13,352 nt of DNA from a virus. Lineage: Duplodnaviria > Heunggongvirae > Uroviricota > Caudoviricetes. Positions 1 through 8,245 of this stretch are shown one piece after another (the stretch's first letter is position 1; each line of letters opens with the position of its first letter). Under the pieces are notes generated by a model that was given only the letters and a program-made list of their open reading frames with translations, was not told the origin of the DNA and did no database searches. The position numbers and the translations under genes are program-made. The DNA is taken from IMG/VR virus record IMGVR_UViG_2667527789_000010. One strand, given 5' to 3'.

Positions 1-820
<820 letters not shown>

Positions 821-824
<4 letters not shown>

Positions 825-1132
825 ATATATTTATGATGAGGACGCTCGTGCTTATTGGCAGGATTTTCAATCTTAAAGGAGTACTGATGCTGCAGATAAG
901 ACTCAACTTTTTCTGACAATTTTTCTGCTACTTCCAGGAAGACTTGCCGGACGCTCCTTCTGGCTGCTGCCTCATAAAACTCCAGCGCAGCTCCTTCAAC
1001 ACGGTCCATGGCGACATCCAGGTCAAAAATTTCACCGTCAAAGCGTTCCTTGTCCTGTAAGGCTACAGTTACCGTAACTTTATTCTCAAAATTACGGACT
1101 CCTTTCACAACCAGTTCATAGTCTTGAGTCAT
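821..1132 (-). CDS. ydfR: YdfR-like lysis-cassette protein (DUF1327 by recall)
   Basis: 103-aa ORF between holin and endolysin, translationally coupled to the endolysin start. Position and length match Qin YdfR. Confidence 0.7.
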
Positions 1133-1136
1133 TGGA

Positions 1137-1352
1137 TTACTCTCCTCTCGCAGCCTTACGCCTGTCTTCTTTAATCTTGAAATAAAGATTTGTCAGATAC
1201 GTCAGCAGGCCAAAAACCAGGCTACCCAGCACACCGATTGCAGCCCACTGTGACGGAGTTACTTTATCGAGTAACTGTAATGCCCAGAAACCAGCATTAC
1301 CCGCCGATGTGCCATAGGCAACACCTGTTGTTAACTTATCCATTGATTTCAT
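1137..1352 (-). CDS. essQ: Holin, EssQ-like (71 aa)
   Basis: ATG at 1350-1352 preceded by GGTGAGGA. Product [71 protein letters not shown] has hydrophobic helices and a basic C-terminus. The track's 97-aa version is an upstream in-frame extension without an SD. Confidence 0.75.
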
Positions 1353-1572
1353 ATCCTCACCCCGATGTACACGGATGGTGCAATATGTTTGAAAAAGATC
1401 GGAGTCTACGGGGTAGTTTTGACAGCACACGTTGTTCTCAACGGCGCTAAAGAAACATACACATTAAAAATGTGAGTAATTATTTTGAAAGAAAGTCATA
1501 TATAAAATAATAATACGAGAAATGTTTTCATATTTAGTGTACTGTATACGGCCATTTATACAGGAAAAGCCT

Positions 1573-1743
1573 ATGTCAGAACGTAAAGACTCAAAATCAC
1601 GCCGTAATTATCTCGTTAAATGTTCCTGCCCAAACTGCACCCAAGAGTCAGAACACAGTTTTTCAAGAGTACAAAAAGGTGCCCTTTTGATCTGCCCTCA
1701 TTGCAACAAAGTATTCCAGACAAATCTTAAAGCTGTAGCCTGA
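1573..1743 (+). CDS. Small hypothetical zinc-ribbon protein (56 aa) with two CxxC pairs
   Basis: ATG at 1573 with AGGAAAAG SD. Product MSERKDSKSRRNYLVKCSCPNCTQESEHSFSRVQKGALLICPHCNKVFQTNLKAVA carries CPNC...CPHC. Sits in a strongly AT-rich island (about 1440-1800) on the strand opposite the late operon, followed by a hairpin at 1806-1825. Confidence 0.4.
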   Translation: MSERKDSKSRRNYLVKCSCPNCTQESEHSFSRVQKGALLICPHCNKVFQTNLKAVA

Positions 1744-1800
1744 TTGATTTTATTAGTAACAAGTATTTTTTATATTTTAATAATATATTTAAAGCAGATA

Positions 1801-1825
1801 ATAAAAAACCCGCCTGAGCGGGTTT
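1801..1825. terminator. Rho-independent terminator hairpin, probably bidirectional (clear T-tract on minus strand)
   Basis: AAACCCGC-CTGA-GCGGGTTT perfect stem-loop at 1806-1825. On the minus strand it is followed by TTTTTT, so it can terminate the cspB transcript; on the plus strand it follows the zinc-ribbon ORF but lacks a strong U-tract. Confidence 0.5.
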
Positions 1826-2106
1826 GAGATTGTGGTGCTTTTTGTGGGAGTCATCCACTTACGCACTTTGTTTTGCGATGCCAGCAGTTAGCTTCTGCTG
1901 TGAAACTATTCATGCAGCAAACCTGCACTTCACCACAATGGTTAGCATACTTTTCCTGATTAAGATTTTGCCAAATATGCTAGCCATTGTTTCATGTATT
2001 GGACCTCCTTACTTTTTATTAAAGAGATCCAATATTCACTACTCTGTCCGTATCTCTACTCAGGCATCAGCCTTCTTCGTTATCGTATACAGACGAGCGA
2101 TGAATT

Positions 2107-2322
2107 TTAATCAGTAATGATGACATTTGCTGCTGCAGGACCTTTAGCACCACTCTCTATAGAGAAGGTAACCTTTTGACCTTCAAATAAGGTTCGATAA
2201 TTATCATTCTGAATCGCAGAAAAATGCACAAACACATCTTTACTACCATCAACAGGAGAAATAAAGCCGAAACCTTTATCAGCGTTAAACCATTTTACTA
2301 AACCAGTCATTTTATTTGACAT
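2107..2322 (-). CDS. cspB: Cold-shock protein CspB (CspA family, 71 aa)
   Basis: [71 protein letters not shown] has the RNP1 (KGFGFI) and RNP2 (VFVHF) motifs. SD AAGGAA upstream of the ATG at 2320-2322. Confidence 0.9.
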
Positions 2323-2480
2323 TCTACATTCCTTAACTTGAGCCTTTCGGCATAAATGGTTTGCATAACAGAAACGACTTCGTACTTAATTGGAGAGACT
2401 CAAAGAAGGAATAAGTGAATAACACCTGAAATGAGAACTGCTTTAGTAAACTACTTCGTATATCGTCTGTTCTTCAAACC
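2323..2480 (-). promoter_or_regulatory. cspB long 5' UTR with cold-box-like element
   Basis: About 160 nt of non-coding leader upstream of cspB. Minus strand contains TGAAGAACAGACGA (complement of about 2464-2477), resembling the cspA-family cold box UGACGUACAGA. The promoter itself was not pinned down. Confidence 0.4.
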
Positions 2481-2620
2481 GACGCAGTCATTAACTCATA
2501 GTTGAACATATGAAGCAATGTTTATTTTAGACATCCAGCCACCTTCAATCCTATCAAAAAAGTAGTTTTCTCCAGGAACGTGTGTATGGTGCACCAGGTT
2601 ATCAGTATTAAGGAGTTTTT

Positions 2621-2832
2621 CTGTCCCCTAAAATGACAGGAATTGTCAAAAACTTTGACTACAAAAGCAGCAAAGGTCTTATATTCCCATCCGATGGCGT
2701 ATCGATGCCCAGCTTCACGTTTCAGCTCTCAATCTTCGAGATGCAGAAGAAATTACCACAGGATTACGCGTGGAATTTTGCTGGATAAATGGTTCGCGTG
2801 GACCTTCAACTGCCAATGTTTATCCCGGGATG
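2621..2832 (+). pseudogene. cspF/cspH-like cold-shock gene, degraded (start-codon change, frameshift, no in-frame stop)
   Basis: Frame 2 from ATG 2633 gives [22 protein letters not shown]. The Csp-like sequence then continues in frame 1 from 2698 as [42 protein letters not shown], consistent with a 1-bp deletion near GGC|CGT at 2696-2700. The SD AAGGAG (2610-2615) is positioned for a codon at 2621 that is CTG. The C-terminal frame has no stop until 3159. Confidence 0.55.
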
Positions 2833-2867
2833 AGATTCAATATCTCTATTGCCCCATTTAAAGCACA

Positions 2868-2902
2868 AAAACCCGCTTATAAGCGGGTTTTCTACTTTTT
2901 TC
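2868..2902. terminator. Bidirectional rho-independent terminator (tR'-like for the late transcript and terminator of the cspF-like gene)
   Basis: Perfect palindrome AAACCCGCTTA|TAAGCGGGTTT (2870-2891) followed by TCTACTTTTTT on the plus strand and by TTTTTGTGCTTT on the minus strand. Confidence 0.6.
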
Positions 2903-2938
2903 TAAACGTCGGATACACAAAGCCCATCGTTGAGAAAA

Positions 2939-2967
2939 TCTTATCCATGTTTTTTGAAAAATGCAAA
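2939..2967 (-). promoter_or_regulatory. Candidate late promoter (PR'-like) immediately downstream of the Q-like gene
   Basis: Minus strand reads TTGCAT (complement of 2962-2967), a 17-nt spacer, then TAAGAT (complement of 2939-2944), starting about 30 nt after the quuQ stop and about 50 nt before the terminator at 2870-2891. The arrangement matches lambdoid Q/PR'/tR' logic. Confidence 0.35.
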
Positions 2968-2997
2968 CATCATGTCGCCATCTTCAGCAAAAATCAT

Positions 2998-3750
2998 TTA
3001 TCTCGTCACCTTCCTCAATTGCGCTTCCGCGTATGCTTCTTCCTGCCAGCACTTTGTTACCAGTTTACCAATGACGTCCGCATACCCCTTATACCACTGA
3101 TAATCGGTCAGGTCTGGTACCAGCTTCTGGACATGACGTCGTGCCAGCGTGGTCGGTAAACGACTAAACCGGTTTCCATTACAACGCCCACAAATCTTAT
3201 ATACCGGTACGCCATGAAACCGGGTTCTTTTTTCATCCAGAACAATCCCTTTACCCTTACACCCTCTGCACGCTGTGCTGACTTCGCCCTTACCATGGCA
3301 ATGCTGACATAGTTCCTTCACCCATTCTTCCTTGATTACAGATTCCCCGCGTCTGTAGTGTTTCACCACTTCGCGCAATACATTATAAAATCCCGTACCT
3401 GAACAATGCTCACAGCGAGCCTTACTTGCCGCAGACCTGGAGTAATCAGCAAAGGCAAAATTCACGAGGTAAGGAATAATCTGTAACCGGATTTCTTCAC
3501 TCAATTTGTTCAATGTCGGGTTATCCAGTGCCATCGCGTAATTTAGCAGGCCTTCAATCGCAAACTGAGCGTCCTGAACACCAACTTTTGCCAGAAATAA
3601 GGCCAACCCAAGTGGTGCTTTCGACTGCACCATCCCCTGCGCTGCCATTACATCCGTAATTGTTAAACAACCGGTGCCTGTCGCTGGAGCGTCATCGCTC
3701 AATTTTGGAGATTTTGGGGAGTAATATTTTGGTAAGGCTTCAAGGTTCAT
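2998..3750 (-). CDS. quuQ: Late-gene antiterminator Q-like protein (QuuQ-like, 250 aa) with four CxxCxGxG zinc-finger repeats
   Basis: ATG at 3748-3750 preceded by GGAG. Contains [24 protein letters not shown] and CGRCNGNR repeats. Sits directly upstream of the lysis cassette and candidate late promoter. Length matches K-12 QuuQ by recall. The track's 260-aa version is an upstream extension. Confidence 0.7.
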
Positions 3751-3763
3751 GCTCGTTCTCCAC

Positions 3764-4813
3764 TTACGCCAGTACGCCAATTGCCAGCGCGCGATCGATA
3801 AAACGAAATATCAGCTCCAGTTGGGAGCCATACTTCTCTTCAAATGCCACTGTATCCGTATGCAGCTCGTTGTGATGCTTTCTGCACAAAGGCAACACAA
3901 AGAGATCATGTGCTTTTGTTCCCATTCCGCCCTGCCCGTGACCAATCAGATGATGCGGATCGTCGGCTGGCATACCGCAGCAAGCACACGGCTGTGTCTT
4001 AACCCAACGTGTGTATTTCTCCTTAACCCAGCGGCGACGTTTAGGCAGCTTCATGAAAGATTCCGGAGACTCTGGATCAACGGTGATGCTTACCACCGTC
4101 TTTTCCTGTGGTGTTTTTTGTTGCTGGTGGGCGTAAGGCAACGGTGCAAGATTTTTTGTGCGTTGTTTCAATATGCTGGTGGCGGTCTGCTCTCCCGGTA
4201 CGATGTCGCTTTCGCGGTACACCGAGCAGATTTTTTCCGCTGGTAATCCCAGCGAACGACGCGATACAGCCTCAGGTAGTGCATCCACCACCTGATTGCA
4301 GACCGCCCACCAGGATAATTCAGCCAAAGATAATTCCCGCTCCTGCGTACCGCTTATTGCGTGACGGATGACGTCAATCACCCATGCTGTCAGATTTTGT
4401 TGAGCAAGCAGCTCCAGTGATTCCGATGTCTGGTCACGCAGTTGGTTGTCGCAGTGCCAACACAACACCATTGCGCCGGTACCATAACGGTGAATGACTG
4501 TTTCAGAGTGATGGTAATCGCCATTAGGCCACTGGCAGGATGTAACATGACGTAATAGCCAGTCAGACAATGCGCCAACACCGCCAGCAGCACGAATCAC
4601 CCGTTCGTTACTAAAAAACGGCAGCAATGTTTTGTCTTCCGCCAGCGACTGGCGAACGGCAGGAACGACTCCGGATGGCAGATTACGCATGCTTTTTGGT
4701 TCCGGTTCCACCAGCACTCGAGGATTATGAAATATCTGTATGGATTCACGGCCCGGCTTAAGGACCACCAGCCCAAGCTCAGGCACCAGAACAGGTCTAA
4801 GTAATACCCGCAC
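3764..4813 (-). CDS. ydfU: YdfU-like protein (DUF968 by recall; 349 aa) with Cys/His-rich C-terminal motif
   Basis: GTG start at 4811-4813 preceded by a strong SD GGAGG and placed 1 nt after the stop of the upstream ORF; the track's ATG at 4852 would overlap that ORF. C-terminus contains CACCG...HHLIGHG...CRKHHNELH, a putative metal-binding or HNH-like region. Confidence 0.7.
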   Translation of the reverse strand: MRVLLRPVLVPELGLVVLKPGRESIQIFHNPRVLVEPEPKSMRNLPSGVVPAVRQSLAEDKTLLPFFSNERVIRAAGGVGALSDWLLRHVTSCQWPNGDYHHSETVIHRYGTGAMVLCWHCDNQLRDQTSESLELLAQQNLTAWVIDVIRHAISGTQERELSLAELSWWAVCNQVVDALPEAVSRRSLGLPAEKICSVYRESDIVPGEQTATSILKQRTKNLAPLPYAHQQQKTPQEKTVVSITVDPESPESFMKLPKRRRWVKEKYTRWVKTQPCACCGMPADDPHHLIGHGQGGMGTKAHDLFVLPLCRKHHNELHTDTVAFEEKYGSQLELIFRFIDRALAIGVLA

Positions 4814-6457: not shown

Positions 6458-8245
6458 ATGGACGATATTAATATCAGCCTCGACGAACTTAACACTATTG
6501 ATTTATCCCCCTTAATCCAGAGTAAGCTGCCAGTTACCTGCTTTGATATCACAAAGTATCTTTCTAGCCTAGGTGATGGAAGAGCGGAGATAAGACTGCT
6601 AACCCATATTTGCGGTTTTCACTTTCGTCCCGAAAATCCACAGGTACCATTTGGTCCGTGCTTTCAAAGCAGCCAAGGTAGATCTGCAATTCCGGATGAC
6701 ATTAACGGGTTGTCGCTGGAGGTACTTTCTCAATTTTGCCCGACGATAGAGCTACCCGAACTTCAAGCTCGTATTGCTGATACACTTTGGGTTCGTAAAA
6801 TTGGTGGAATCCGTTTTCCTTTGCTGGCAGTCCGTGCTTATTATGCGTCCAGTATAGCTATTATGACATCGCAAGGGACGTGGGTTAGTGCTTTAGAACG
6901 CCTAGAGCGTGCGCTTAGGCTGTGTTGTTTTTTTCGAAAGCATACTGATTTCAGGGATGAATTTGATCAGCTTTCGGCACATCTACTAGCAGAGTATGAA
7001 CGTACCAGAGAACAAGGCGATTCACCTTATCCGCTGCGACTCCTGCAACTCGATATCGACTGTAAAGTGAGTGAGCCATCTTTTATTGCCCAGGAACTCC
7101 TGTTTCTGACAAAAAACTATCTGGCTCAAAAATTATTTTCATTTGCCGTCGATGCCTGTAAAACCGCAATCCCGATTGCGAATAGGTGCTGTGACAGAGA
7201 TACACAGTTTGAATTCTGGCGGCTTCTTGCCGATACACATCTGGAAGAGTCAAAATTCCAAGATGGCGGTATGATTTCGGCAGCCTGCATGCAGAATGCT
7301 ATTGAAGCACTGGCTAATATTCCAGGAACCCGAATAGAACGTCTTGCGCTGTATGAAGAAATGCGTGATTACCAAATCGAATCCCGTCACCAGATGTCTA
7401 TCCTTCAGTCTCCCCCTCAAGATATTAGTGAGATTGTCCATCAAGCCAAGAGTCGGGTAGTCGGAAGAGATTTGTTTGATATGGTTTTCAGACTTGCGAT
7501 GCTGGTCTGTCGGCCAACCAGCATTGAGAGACTTAAGGCTCAAGCAATAGAACAAAAGGCCAACAGCATAGCTTGGATGTTTGGATCAACACATATTGAT
7601 CATGAGGGAATGACACTTGCTCGCATACCCGCAGGATTGGGGATTGATGATGCAAATGGGGCAGTTATTTGGCCCATAATGATGACGAGAATGCGTATCG
7701 ACCATGAGTTGGCAGTAGCTGGGCAAATTATTCCTGCTACAGATGAGATCACAATGAAATATCCAATCTCGGAGGCGTTTTTTCGCGATATGTTCATCAA
7801 TCATCCCTTCATCCCGTTTGGGCATGAAGAGTTTTTCATCAAGGGTATGGTTTGCGGTTTCAATGGAGATTTTATGACGGCATGCCACGTGTTGATTCCC
7901 CAGCTCGAAAATAGTCTGAGATATGTGGCTAAAATTAAAGGTGAGGAACCATCGCAGCTTCACGGGGACGGTTCGCAAGAGCGAAATGGACTCAAGGGAT
8001 TACTAGATAATCCACTGATTATTGAAGCTTTCGGCGTAGACATAATTGGCAATCTTCAGGCCTTACTGGTAGATAAAATCTATGGTGATTTACGAAATCA
8101 ACTAGCTCACGGATATGTGCCTGCCGGTTACTACAATCAACCTCCCTGCATTTTTGCATGGTGGCTTGTATTGCACATTCTAATGAACCCTACGGCGAGA
8201 TACTGGCAAGCCACTTATGGCCAAGAGAGTGAGGCTCAGACTTAA
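6458..8245 (+). CDS. Large hypothetical protein (595 aa) with C-terminal HEPN-type R-x4-H motif; candidate defence/abortive-infection nuclease
   Basis: Unambiguous 1788-nt ORF with SD AAGGTG 5 nt upstream of the ATG. It is the only long plus-strand gene in an otherwise minus-strand block. Lower GC by eye (about 40-47%) and E. coli-rare codons (AGA, AGG, ATA, CTA). C-terminus contains GDLRNQLAHG; a second R-x5-H occurs at RDMFINH. No Walker A motif seen. Confidence 0.8.
   Translation: MDDINISLDELNTIDLSPLIQSKLPVTCFDITKYLSSLGDGRAEIRLLTHICGFHFRPENPQVPFGPCFQSSQGRSAIPDDINGLSLEVLSQFCPTIELPELQARIADTLWVRKIGGIRFPLLAVRAYYASSIAIMTSQGTWVSALERLERALRLCCFFRKHTDFRDEFDQLSAHLLAEYERTREQGDSPYPLRLLQLDIDCKVSEPSFIAQELLFLTKNYLAQKLFSFAVDACKTAIPIANRCCDRDTQFEFWRLLADTHLEESKFQDGGMISAACMQNAIEALANIPGTRIERLALYEEMRDYQIESRHQMSILQSPPQDISEIVHQAKSRVVGRDLFDMVFRLAMLVCRPTSIERLKAQAIEQKANSIAWMFGSTHIDHEGMTLARIPAGLGIDDANGAVIWPIMMTRMRIDHELAVAGQIIPATDEITMKYPISEAFFRDMFINHPFIPFGHEEFFIKGMVCGFNGDFMTACHVLIPQLENSLRYVAKIKGEEPSQLHGDGSQERNGLKGLLDNPLIIEAFGVDIIGNLQALLVDKIYGDLRNQLAHGYVPAGYYNQPPCIFAWWLVLHILMNPTARYWQATYGQESEAQT

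Follow-up and report, generated by a model that had tools for sequence, protein, structure and literature searches.

Late promoters of lambdoid phages

The Q proteins of lambdoid phages are found in the Pfam families PF03589 (Q-lambda), PF06530 (Q21) and PF06323 (Q82), with no sequence similarity among the three (PMC9388147). In phage lambda, the sequence AACGAT at +1 to +6 acts as a -10-like element: there sigma70 brings about the pause during which Q is loaded (PMC9388147). Q-binding elements (QBEs) are located between the -35 and -10 hexamers (PMC4914094). The lambda QBE is 13 bp, and in the lambda Q-loading complex sigma region 4 moves to a -35-like TTGACT (PMC9388147). The intrinsic terminator tR' ends a leader of 194 nt and gives a short constitutive RNA, the 6S RNA.

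Other phages show variations of this PR'-qut-tR' arrangement. Phages P22 (gene 23), HK97 and HK225 have a Q of the Q-lambda family and AACGATGG at +1; their terminators end at +53 to +57, and the HK225 record annotates the corresponding hairpin as a rho-independent terminator. In Stx phages PR' is constitutive, tR' gives a short RNA in lysogens, and the stx cargo is located between Q and the lysis genes (Sy et al. 2020, PMC7547250). The StxS RNA of these phages, which have another Q and another leader, is processed from a 258-nt transcript to 74 nt (PMC7547250). A literature search for quuQ, ydfT, the Qin late promoter and a cspF-ydfT sRNA gave nothing specific, and no QuuQ experiment for any Qin-type cassette was found.

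Here we describe the region 2863-2966 on the minus strand of a phage-derived sequence. We suggest with good confidence that this region controls the late genes of a Qin-type lambdoid prophage, as a cassette similar to PR'-qut-tR' of lambda and served by QuuQ.

Gene organization of the late region

The window, that is the whole stretch of 13,352 nucleotides that was analysed, is a lambdoid E. coli prophage of the Qin type. Many E. coli chromosomes match positions 1400-3800 at 100% identity; among them is that of strain W2-5, where the region is annotated by RefSeq and where the prophage has terminase, portal and capsid genes. The gene layout is the same in K-12 MG1655. The gene coordinates below were derived from the ORF list of the window and from family scans.

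291-824, minus strand: rrrQ, lysozyme (annotation)
821-1132, minus strand: ydfR (annotation)
1137-1352, minus strand: essQ/essD, holin (Pfam Phage_holin_2_1; annotation)
1573-1743, plus strand: ynfU, zinc-ribbon ORF, antisense to late transcription (Pfam PF23499, E=2.5e-31; annotation)
2107-2322, minus strand: cspB coding sequence, sense to late transcription, with its own transcription unit (Pfam CSD)
2091-2483, minus strand: cspA-type 5' UTR and cspB (Rfam RF01766, 158.8 bits)
2633-2861 (about), plus strand: cspF pseudogene, antisense to late transcription (RefSeq 'frameshifted; incomplete')
2998-3750, minus strand: quuQ (ydfT), 250 aa, with the stop codon TAA at 3000..2998 (Pfam PF03589)
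3764-4813, minus strand: ydfU (RefSeq annotation and ORF list)

The lysis genes (1352-291, minus strand) are located downstream of the cassette on the same strand, with the essQ start approximately 1.6 kb away. The first-pass annotation of this DNA placed cargo genes between quuQ and the lysis genes, and both the annotation and Pfam support this, with cspB in the sense orientation and the cspF remnant and ynfU antisense. It also counted cspF as a gene, but in the window cspF is a frameshifted and truncated pseudogene, according to the RefSeq note and the alignment with K-12. Compared to K-12, one nucleotide is missing between 2697 and 2698, and a 258-bp deletion (junction 2822/2823; L002 5059-5316) removes the last cspF codons and ynfS. 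The larger deletion ends 40 nt past the 3' end of the leader RNA described below and leaves the cassette intact. The Rfam 15 hits at gathering score in the window are cspA, sok and DicF only; the PR' leader RNA matched no Rfam 15 family.

QuuQ is a Q protein of the lambda family

QuuQ matches Pfam PF03589 (E=3e-54), and its only other Pfam match is a DnaJ-type zinc-finger motif. A phmmer search matched the lambda Q chain 7UBM_Q (E=7e-36), and the lambda Q chain 4MO1 was also matched. Of 250 residues, 247 are identical to K-12 QuuQ. The protein is 98.8% identical to Q of Escherichia phage PhiR42_1 and 94% identical to Q of mEp460. Since QuuQ belongs to PF03589 and not to PF06530 or PF06323, the Q82 and Q21 qut regions, with which the first-pass annotation proposed to compare the locus, are from the wrong families. 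The proper comparators are lambda and P22 Q.

Lambda Q is 33-41% identical to QuuQ, depending on the aligner. In the alignment of the two proteins (A3), many invariant residues fall within the N-terminal 1-55; in lambda Q, residues 1-44 form the nozzle. L245 and T249 of QuuQ are kept and correspond to L202 and T206 of lambda Q, whereas the flap-tip contacts C53, H56 and L58 of lambda Q are L, V and V in QuuQ. QuuQ residues approximately 114-160 (window 3268-3411, minus strand) form an additional zinc-finger insertion, CxxCxGxG ... CxxCxGKG, which is recognised by the DnaJ_CXXCXGXG model of Pfam. The insertion is found in most family members, and the Q proteins of lambda and P22 are without it. 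Due to the changed flap-tip residues and the extra insertion, the details of QuuQ loading may differ from those of lambda.

Promoter, start site and pause element

The elements of the proposed cassette, and a further hairpin downstream, are as follows.

2966..2961, minus strand: -35 hexamer TTGCAT of PR' (direct reading and pattern search)
2960..2944, minus strand: 17-nt spacer TTTTCAAAAAACATGGA, putative QBE (comparison of related sequences)
2943..2938, minus strand: -10 hexamer TAAGAT of PR' (TAAAAT in K-12)
2937..2932, minus strand: TTTCTC, the 6 nt between -10 and +1 (direct reading)
2931..2923, minus strand: start A2931 and pause element AACGAT followed by GGG (AACGATGGG), equal to +1..+9 of lambda PR'
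2915..2914, minus strand: predicted sigma70-dependent pause, RNA 3' ends at +17/+18 (homology to K-12 RNET-seq pauses)
2868-2891, both strands: tR' intrinsic terminator hairpin, palindrome AAAACCCGCTTATAAGCGGGTTTT (terminator scan and fold)
2931-2863, minus strand: short terminated PR' leader RNA of approximately 69 nt, 67 nt in K-12 (K-12 Term-seq via alignment A1; fold)
1806-1825, minus strand: second intrinsic-terminator-like hairpin, 8 pairs followed by TTTTTTATT (scan and fold)

Direct reading and a pattern search found TTGCAT-17-TAAGAT exactly where it had been reported, on the minus strand after the quuQ stop codon, at 2966-2938. TTGCAT begins 31 nt after the stop codon. The two hexamers match the sigma70 consensus at 7 of 12 positions. 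A promoter scan did not call them, and promoter-like sites in the region numbered 5 against 5.4 in shuffles. The hexamers alone are thus at chance level, and it is the adjoining AACGATGGG that brings the promoter above chance. This sequence, the stronger promoter evidence, was missing from the first-pass account. It occurs a single time in the window (0.12 expected), and the composite TTGCAT-17-TAAGAT-6-AACGAT was found in 0 of 200 shuffles with 2 mismatches allowed. Conservation and the K-12 data presented below add to the evidence that the promoter exceeds chance.

Written from the -35 hexamer to +9, lambda PR' reads TTGACT-TATTGAATAAAATTGGG-TAAATT-TGACTC-AACGATGGG and the window TTGCAT-TTTTCAAAAAACATGGA-TAAGAT-TTTCTC-AACGATGGG. 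The register is the same, with a 6-nt -35, 17 nt, a 6-nt -10 and 6 nt before +1, and +1 to +9 are identical. The first A of this lambda-identical stretch is A2931, in agreement with the start near 2931 suggested earlier, and in the K-12 ortholog it is a mapped dRNA-seq TSS. The spacers, and with them the presumed QBEs, are different. The last T of the -10 together with TTTCTC (TTTTCT) sits where lambda has the -35-like TTGACT, and TTTCTC matches lambda at 4 of 6 positions. TTTTCT may be a degenerate counterpart of the lambda element.

In other respects the locus also resembles lambda: the Q protein is of PF03589, the cassette follows directly after Q, the lysis genes are downstream, a short RNA is made constitutively and ends at an intrinsic terminator, and a sigma70-dependent pause is located 16-17 nt from the start, for which the data on the Qin side are from K-12. 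Unlike lambda, with its leader of 194 nt, the leader here is approximately 69 nt, and the holin comes only after a cargo of 1.6 kb (cspF remnant, cspB and ynfU) and a second terminator. P22, HK97 and HK225 share the compact layout of the window; their spacer blocks and terminator hairpin sequences differ from those of the window, and these phages are without cold-shock genes between Q and the holin. The window thus holds a second, diverged qut site of the Q-lambda type, with the pause element of lambda and another presumed QBE, which makes it useful for studies of Q specificity.

Terminators and leader RNA

The description of a palindrome with 11-bp arms and T-runs on both strands, approximately 50 nt beyond the promoter, proved essentially right by direct reading, scan and fold. 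The terminator scan gave AAAACCCGCTTATAAGCGGGTTTT 10 pairs and a 4-nt loop. It folds at -20.0 kcal/mol on the minus strand (z = -5.9) and at -14.5 on the plus strand (z = -5.1), and is flanked by the T-rich tails TTTTTGTGCTTT on the minus and TTTTCTACTTTTTT on the plus strand. Terminator-like sites are enriched in the region (6 vs 2.0 in shuffles). The scan lists the tR' hairpin on the plus strand only, because the minus-strand tail is 5 T followed by GTG. The perfect palindrome is specific to the variant in the window; the K-12 hairpin is CCCGCTGATGAGCGGG. The distance to the hairpin is constant in relatives, while the loops and some of the stems differ.

Judged from its sequence, it is plausible that tR' would be used in both directions and would also end plus-strand transcripts from the cspF side. 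The curated K-12 Term-seq lists contain no plus-strand 3' end at the tR' hairpin; cspF is possibly too weakly expressed.

Late transcripts had been said to cross two more hairpins before essQ. One of them, 2870-2891, is tR' itself, and only 1806-1825 is additional. By its fold the latter looks strong in the late (minus) direction. Term-seq 3' ends were expected at about 2868 and about 1801. For the first, a minus-strand end is found at tR' in K-12, whereas the only end recorded at 1806-1825 is weak and lies on the plus strand (1641060), on the side of ynfU. The hairpin at 1806-1825 may serve ynfU and, without Q, late-direction transcripts past cspB.

On the side of cspB, Term-seq of K-12 has its dominant 3' ends at 1641224 and 1641226, with scores of 0.6-2.5 million. 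They map to the start codon (approximately 1992-1994) of an 11-codon ORF, MKQWLAYLAKS*, at 1960-1995 on the minus strand, approximately 110 nt downstream of cspB. The ORF has a near-perfect Shine-Dalgarno sequence, TAAGGAGGT, at approximately 2003-2011, and no obvious terminator hairpin is seen at approximately 1992-1994.

Transcription of the K-12 copy

Over the 141-bp module, K-12 and the window are 92.9% identical. From the K-12 sequence, we placed the start at 1642422 in NC_000913.3. The offset from NC_000913.2 to NC_000913.3 at this locus, which we take to be 1976 bp, converts this position to 1640446. One consistency check of the offset was done at gnsB, where the converted TSS lies 7 nt after a TTGATT-17-TATCTT promoter. 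Position 1640446, the first A of AACGAT in K-12, is a TSS in the dRNA-seq data of Thomason et al. (listed in PMC7876045). Sigma70-affinity RNET-seq of a delta-greAB strain gave pauses at 1640429 (score 6881, genome-wide row 12) and 1640430 (score 5783, genome-wide row 24) of NC_000913.2 (Sun et al. 2021, PMC7876045, Supplementary Data 1), 17 and 16 nt from 1640446, the nearest of these TSSs.

A curated Term-seq 3' end at 1642356 on the minus strand is classed as 'orphan' (Adams et al. 2021, PMC7815308, Supplementary file 1). Its scores are 103,591 in LB at OD 0.4, 55,368 in LB at OD 2.0 and 123,305 in M63, and the RNA ends with ...CCCGCTGATGAGCGGGTTTTGTGC (PMC7815308). Together these data show that in K-12 the promoter is constitutive, that it is followed by a sigma70 pause like that of lambda, among the strongest genome-wide, and that the terminated RNA is 67 nt long. 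Neither Adams et al. 2021 nor Sun et al. 2021 links the TSS, the pause or the 3' end to the prophage. Three unexplained items of K-12, an orphan 3' end, an unassigned TSS and a strong promoter-proximal pause, can hence be assigned to the Qin late promoter. The supplements of the Cappable-seq (PMC4782308) and SMRT-Cappable-seq (PMC6131387) studies have no entry at the site in either assembly; these files are possibly incomplete and are not evidence of absence.

Transferred to the window via alignment A1, the K-12 features give a start at 2931, a pause at approximately 2915/2914, a 3' end at approximately 2863 and an RNA of approximately 69 nt. It should be noted that the experimental evidence is from the K-12 copy, which is 93% identical and has a better -10 (TAAAAT), not from the exact sequence of the window. 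In all, a PR'-like promoter with qut and a tR'-like terminator between quuQ and the cargo and lysis genes, as the first-pass annotation had suggested, is supported by AACGATGGG and by the K-12 TSS, pause and Term-seq end.

Conservation of the cassette

The module is found in 1603 of 5426 complete E. coli genomes (about 30%), and the ydfT stop is the only thing annotated under it. In approximately 205 complete genomes the 141-bp PR'-tR' module is at least 99% identical to that of the window. A Q of the QuuQ type (92-99% identical) is found in PhiR42_1 (host ECOR13), mEp460, 2H10, the Stx2k phage and Stx2c phages. All of mEp460, PhiR42_1, 2H10 and the Stx2k phage retain the cassette from the Q stop codon through the terminator. 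Just past the terminator the homology to mEp460 and Stx2k breaks off, which makes tR' the module boundary. The cargo that follows is hypothetical genes and a methylase in mEp460, and tRNAs and stx2k in the Stx2k phage.

The -35 hexamer TTGCAT is identical in all close relatives, and is TTGCAA, TTGTCA or TTGCTA where Q is 63-71% identical. These more distant relatives (Mangrovibacter, Kosakonia, Phytobacter, Atlantibacter, Scandinavium and Buttiauxella) have the same layout; their hairpin is another one, but its distance is unchanged. A set of 80 IMG/VR contigs, all selected by the shared -35/spacer core, gave 26 cassette variants. Nearly all of them keep AACGATGGG, while +30 to +40 and the hairpin loops and stems vary.

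We compared 57 distinct PR' regions of the Q-lambda family. The AACGATGG-like element at +1 is near-universal among them. The spacer is specific to each clade, with TTCAAAA...TGG in the QuuQ clade, TTGAATAA...TGGG in lambda and P22 and TTTTCCCGAA...TGTGG in the HK225 clade. Such a pattern would be expected with the cognate QBE in the spacer. About 49 of the 57 regions have an intrinsic terminator that ends at +50 to +67; lambda, with its 194-nt leader, and SF6 are exceptions. The compact layout, which had been pointed out as a special feature of this locus, is therefore the norm of the family, and lambda is the outlier.

The Stx2k phage (L005 4250-6600) has the same Qin-type PR'-tR' cassette approximately 2.3 kb upstream of tRNA genes and stx2. 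Because of this, Stx2k toxin expression should depend on the Qin-type cassette, not on the better-studied 933W-type. It would drive stx2 in the Stx2k phages and probably also in the Stx2c phages; both have a QuuQ-type Q that is 94% identical to QuuQ. Its strength and its response to Q thus bear on toxin output.

Pairing of AACG(A) at +1 to +4/5 of the leader with (U)CGUU at +19 to +27 is possible in most members of the family, lambda, P22 and HK225 among them. In the window (2905-2931, minus strand) this 5' stem joins AACG at +1-4 with CGUU at +24-27. Both sides are changed in a compensatory manner in YeP3 (AAGGA/UUCUU) and in the Citrobacter locus L125 (AUAAU/AUUAU). Per-sequence shuffles of the leaders in L088-L156 were not significant (typical fraction 0.1-0.7), and the stem may thus reflect shared ancestry.

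Proposed mechanism and alternative explanations

We suggest the following model. Sigma70 RNA polymerase would start constitutively at A2931 from TTGCAT-17-TAAGAT. Sigma70 region 2 would then re-bind the -10-like AACGAT (+1 to +6), and the complex would pause at approximately +17/+18. Without Q, the polymerase would escape, terminate at the hairpin 2891-2868 and release an RNA of approximately 69 nt. QuuQ made after induction would bind the spacer element between -35 and -10 and load onto the paused complex, probably with NusA. The modified polymerase would then read through both tR' and the terminator that follows (1825-1806). Late transcription would thereby pass the cspF remnant in antisense, cspB in sense and ynfU in antisense to reach essQ-ydfR-rrrQ approximately 1.6 kb downstream. 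In this model the identity of the QBE, Q loading, readthrough and NusA dependence are what we infer, and the spacer block is a candidate from sequence comparison. Beyond the K-12 assignments and the variant qut site, this is textbook lambdoid biology.

The hairpin could instead do no more than terminate plus-strand transcripts of the convergent cspF(-ynfS) unit, with the minus-strand 'promoter' a chance match in AT-rich DNA. The cspF remnant does end just upstream of the hairpin on the plus strand, the scan calls the hairpin on that strand only, and the hexamers, at 7/12, are uncalled. However, the curated K-12 3' end is on the minus strand with none listed on the plus strand, and the TSS and sigma70 pause of K-12 are on the minus strand as well. 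As the composite motif was absent from all 200 shuffles and both mEp460 and the Stx2k phage, which are without cspF, retain the cassette, we consider this explanation very improbable. Even less credible is a mechanism of the Q82 or Q21 type, in which Q would bind as a dimer and another element would set a pause at +25 or +18. Parts of the late region do resemble phage 21, since the holin belongs to the phage-21 S type (Pfam Phage_holin_2_1). Nevertheless, QuuQ matches PF03589 and neither PF06323 (Q82) nor PF06530 (Q21) (PMC9388147), and the initial transcribed sequence is identical to lambda from +1 to +9. The Pfam result and the lambda alignment led us to reject a cassette of this type.

It is also conceivable, though unlikely, that the cassette is active but a relic that no longer responds to Q, its sole present product being the constitutive short RNA, maybe co-opted as a trans-acting sRNA like StxS. 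Although the Qin prophage of K-12 is cryptic, the RNA is abundant there under every condition, and in the leader an A-rich stretch, AGAAAAAAGUAGAAAA, precedes the terminator hairpin with its U-tail. PR'-tR' RNAs can become Hfq-dependent regulators, and this has been proposed to be common (PMC7547250). Against this, QuuQ is intact and 98.8% identical to Q of PhiR42_1, a phage genome record (host ECOR13), and the W2-5 prophage has terminase, portal and capsid genes. The pause element and the spacer block are kept across diverged relatives, and a plain sRNA gene needs neither of them. The RNA has no Rfam match, and we found no report of Hfq binding in the literature. We thus prefer the Q-served late-gene cassette.

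The 67-nt RNA is abundant in K-12 and unannotated, and the cassette encoding it is found in about 30% of the complete E. coli genomes. We see a small chance that the constitutive 67-69-nt PR'-tR' RNA is a trans-acting or chaperone-binding sRNA like StxS, or that the 5' stem is a conserved functional element of leader RNAs in the Q-lambda family.

A possible variable defence-gene site in Qin-type prophages

A 595-aa ORF with DUF7380 and DUF4209 is encoded at 6458-8245 on the plus strand of the window and matches the PADLOC candidate defence family PDC-S39 (E=3e-102). The corresponding position holds relBE-ydfV-flxA in K-12 Qin and a KwaB-like gene in strain W2-5. As the contents differ between these prophages, the slot appears to be a variable defence-gene site of the Qin type.
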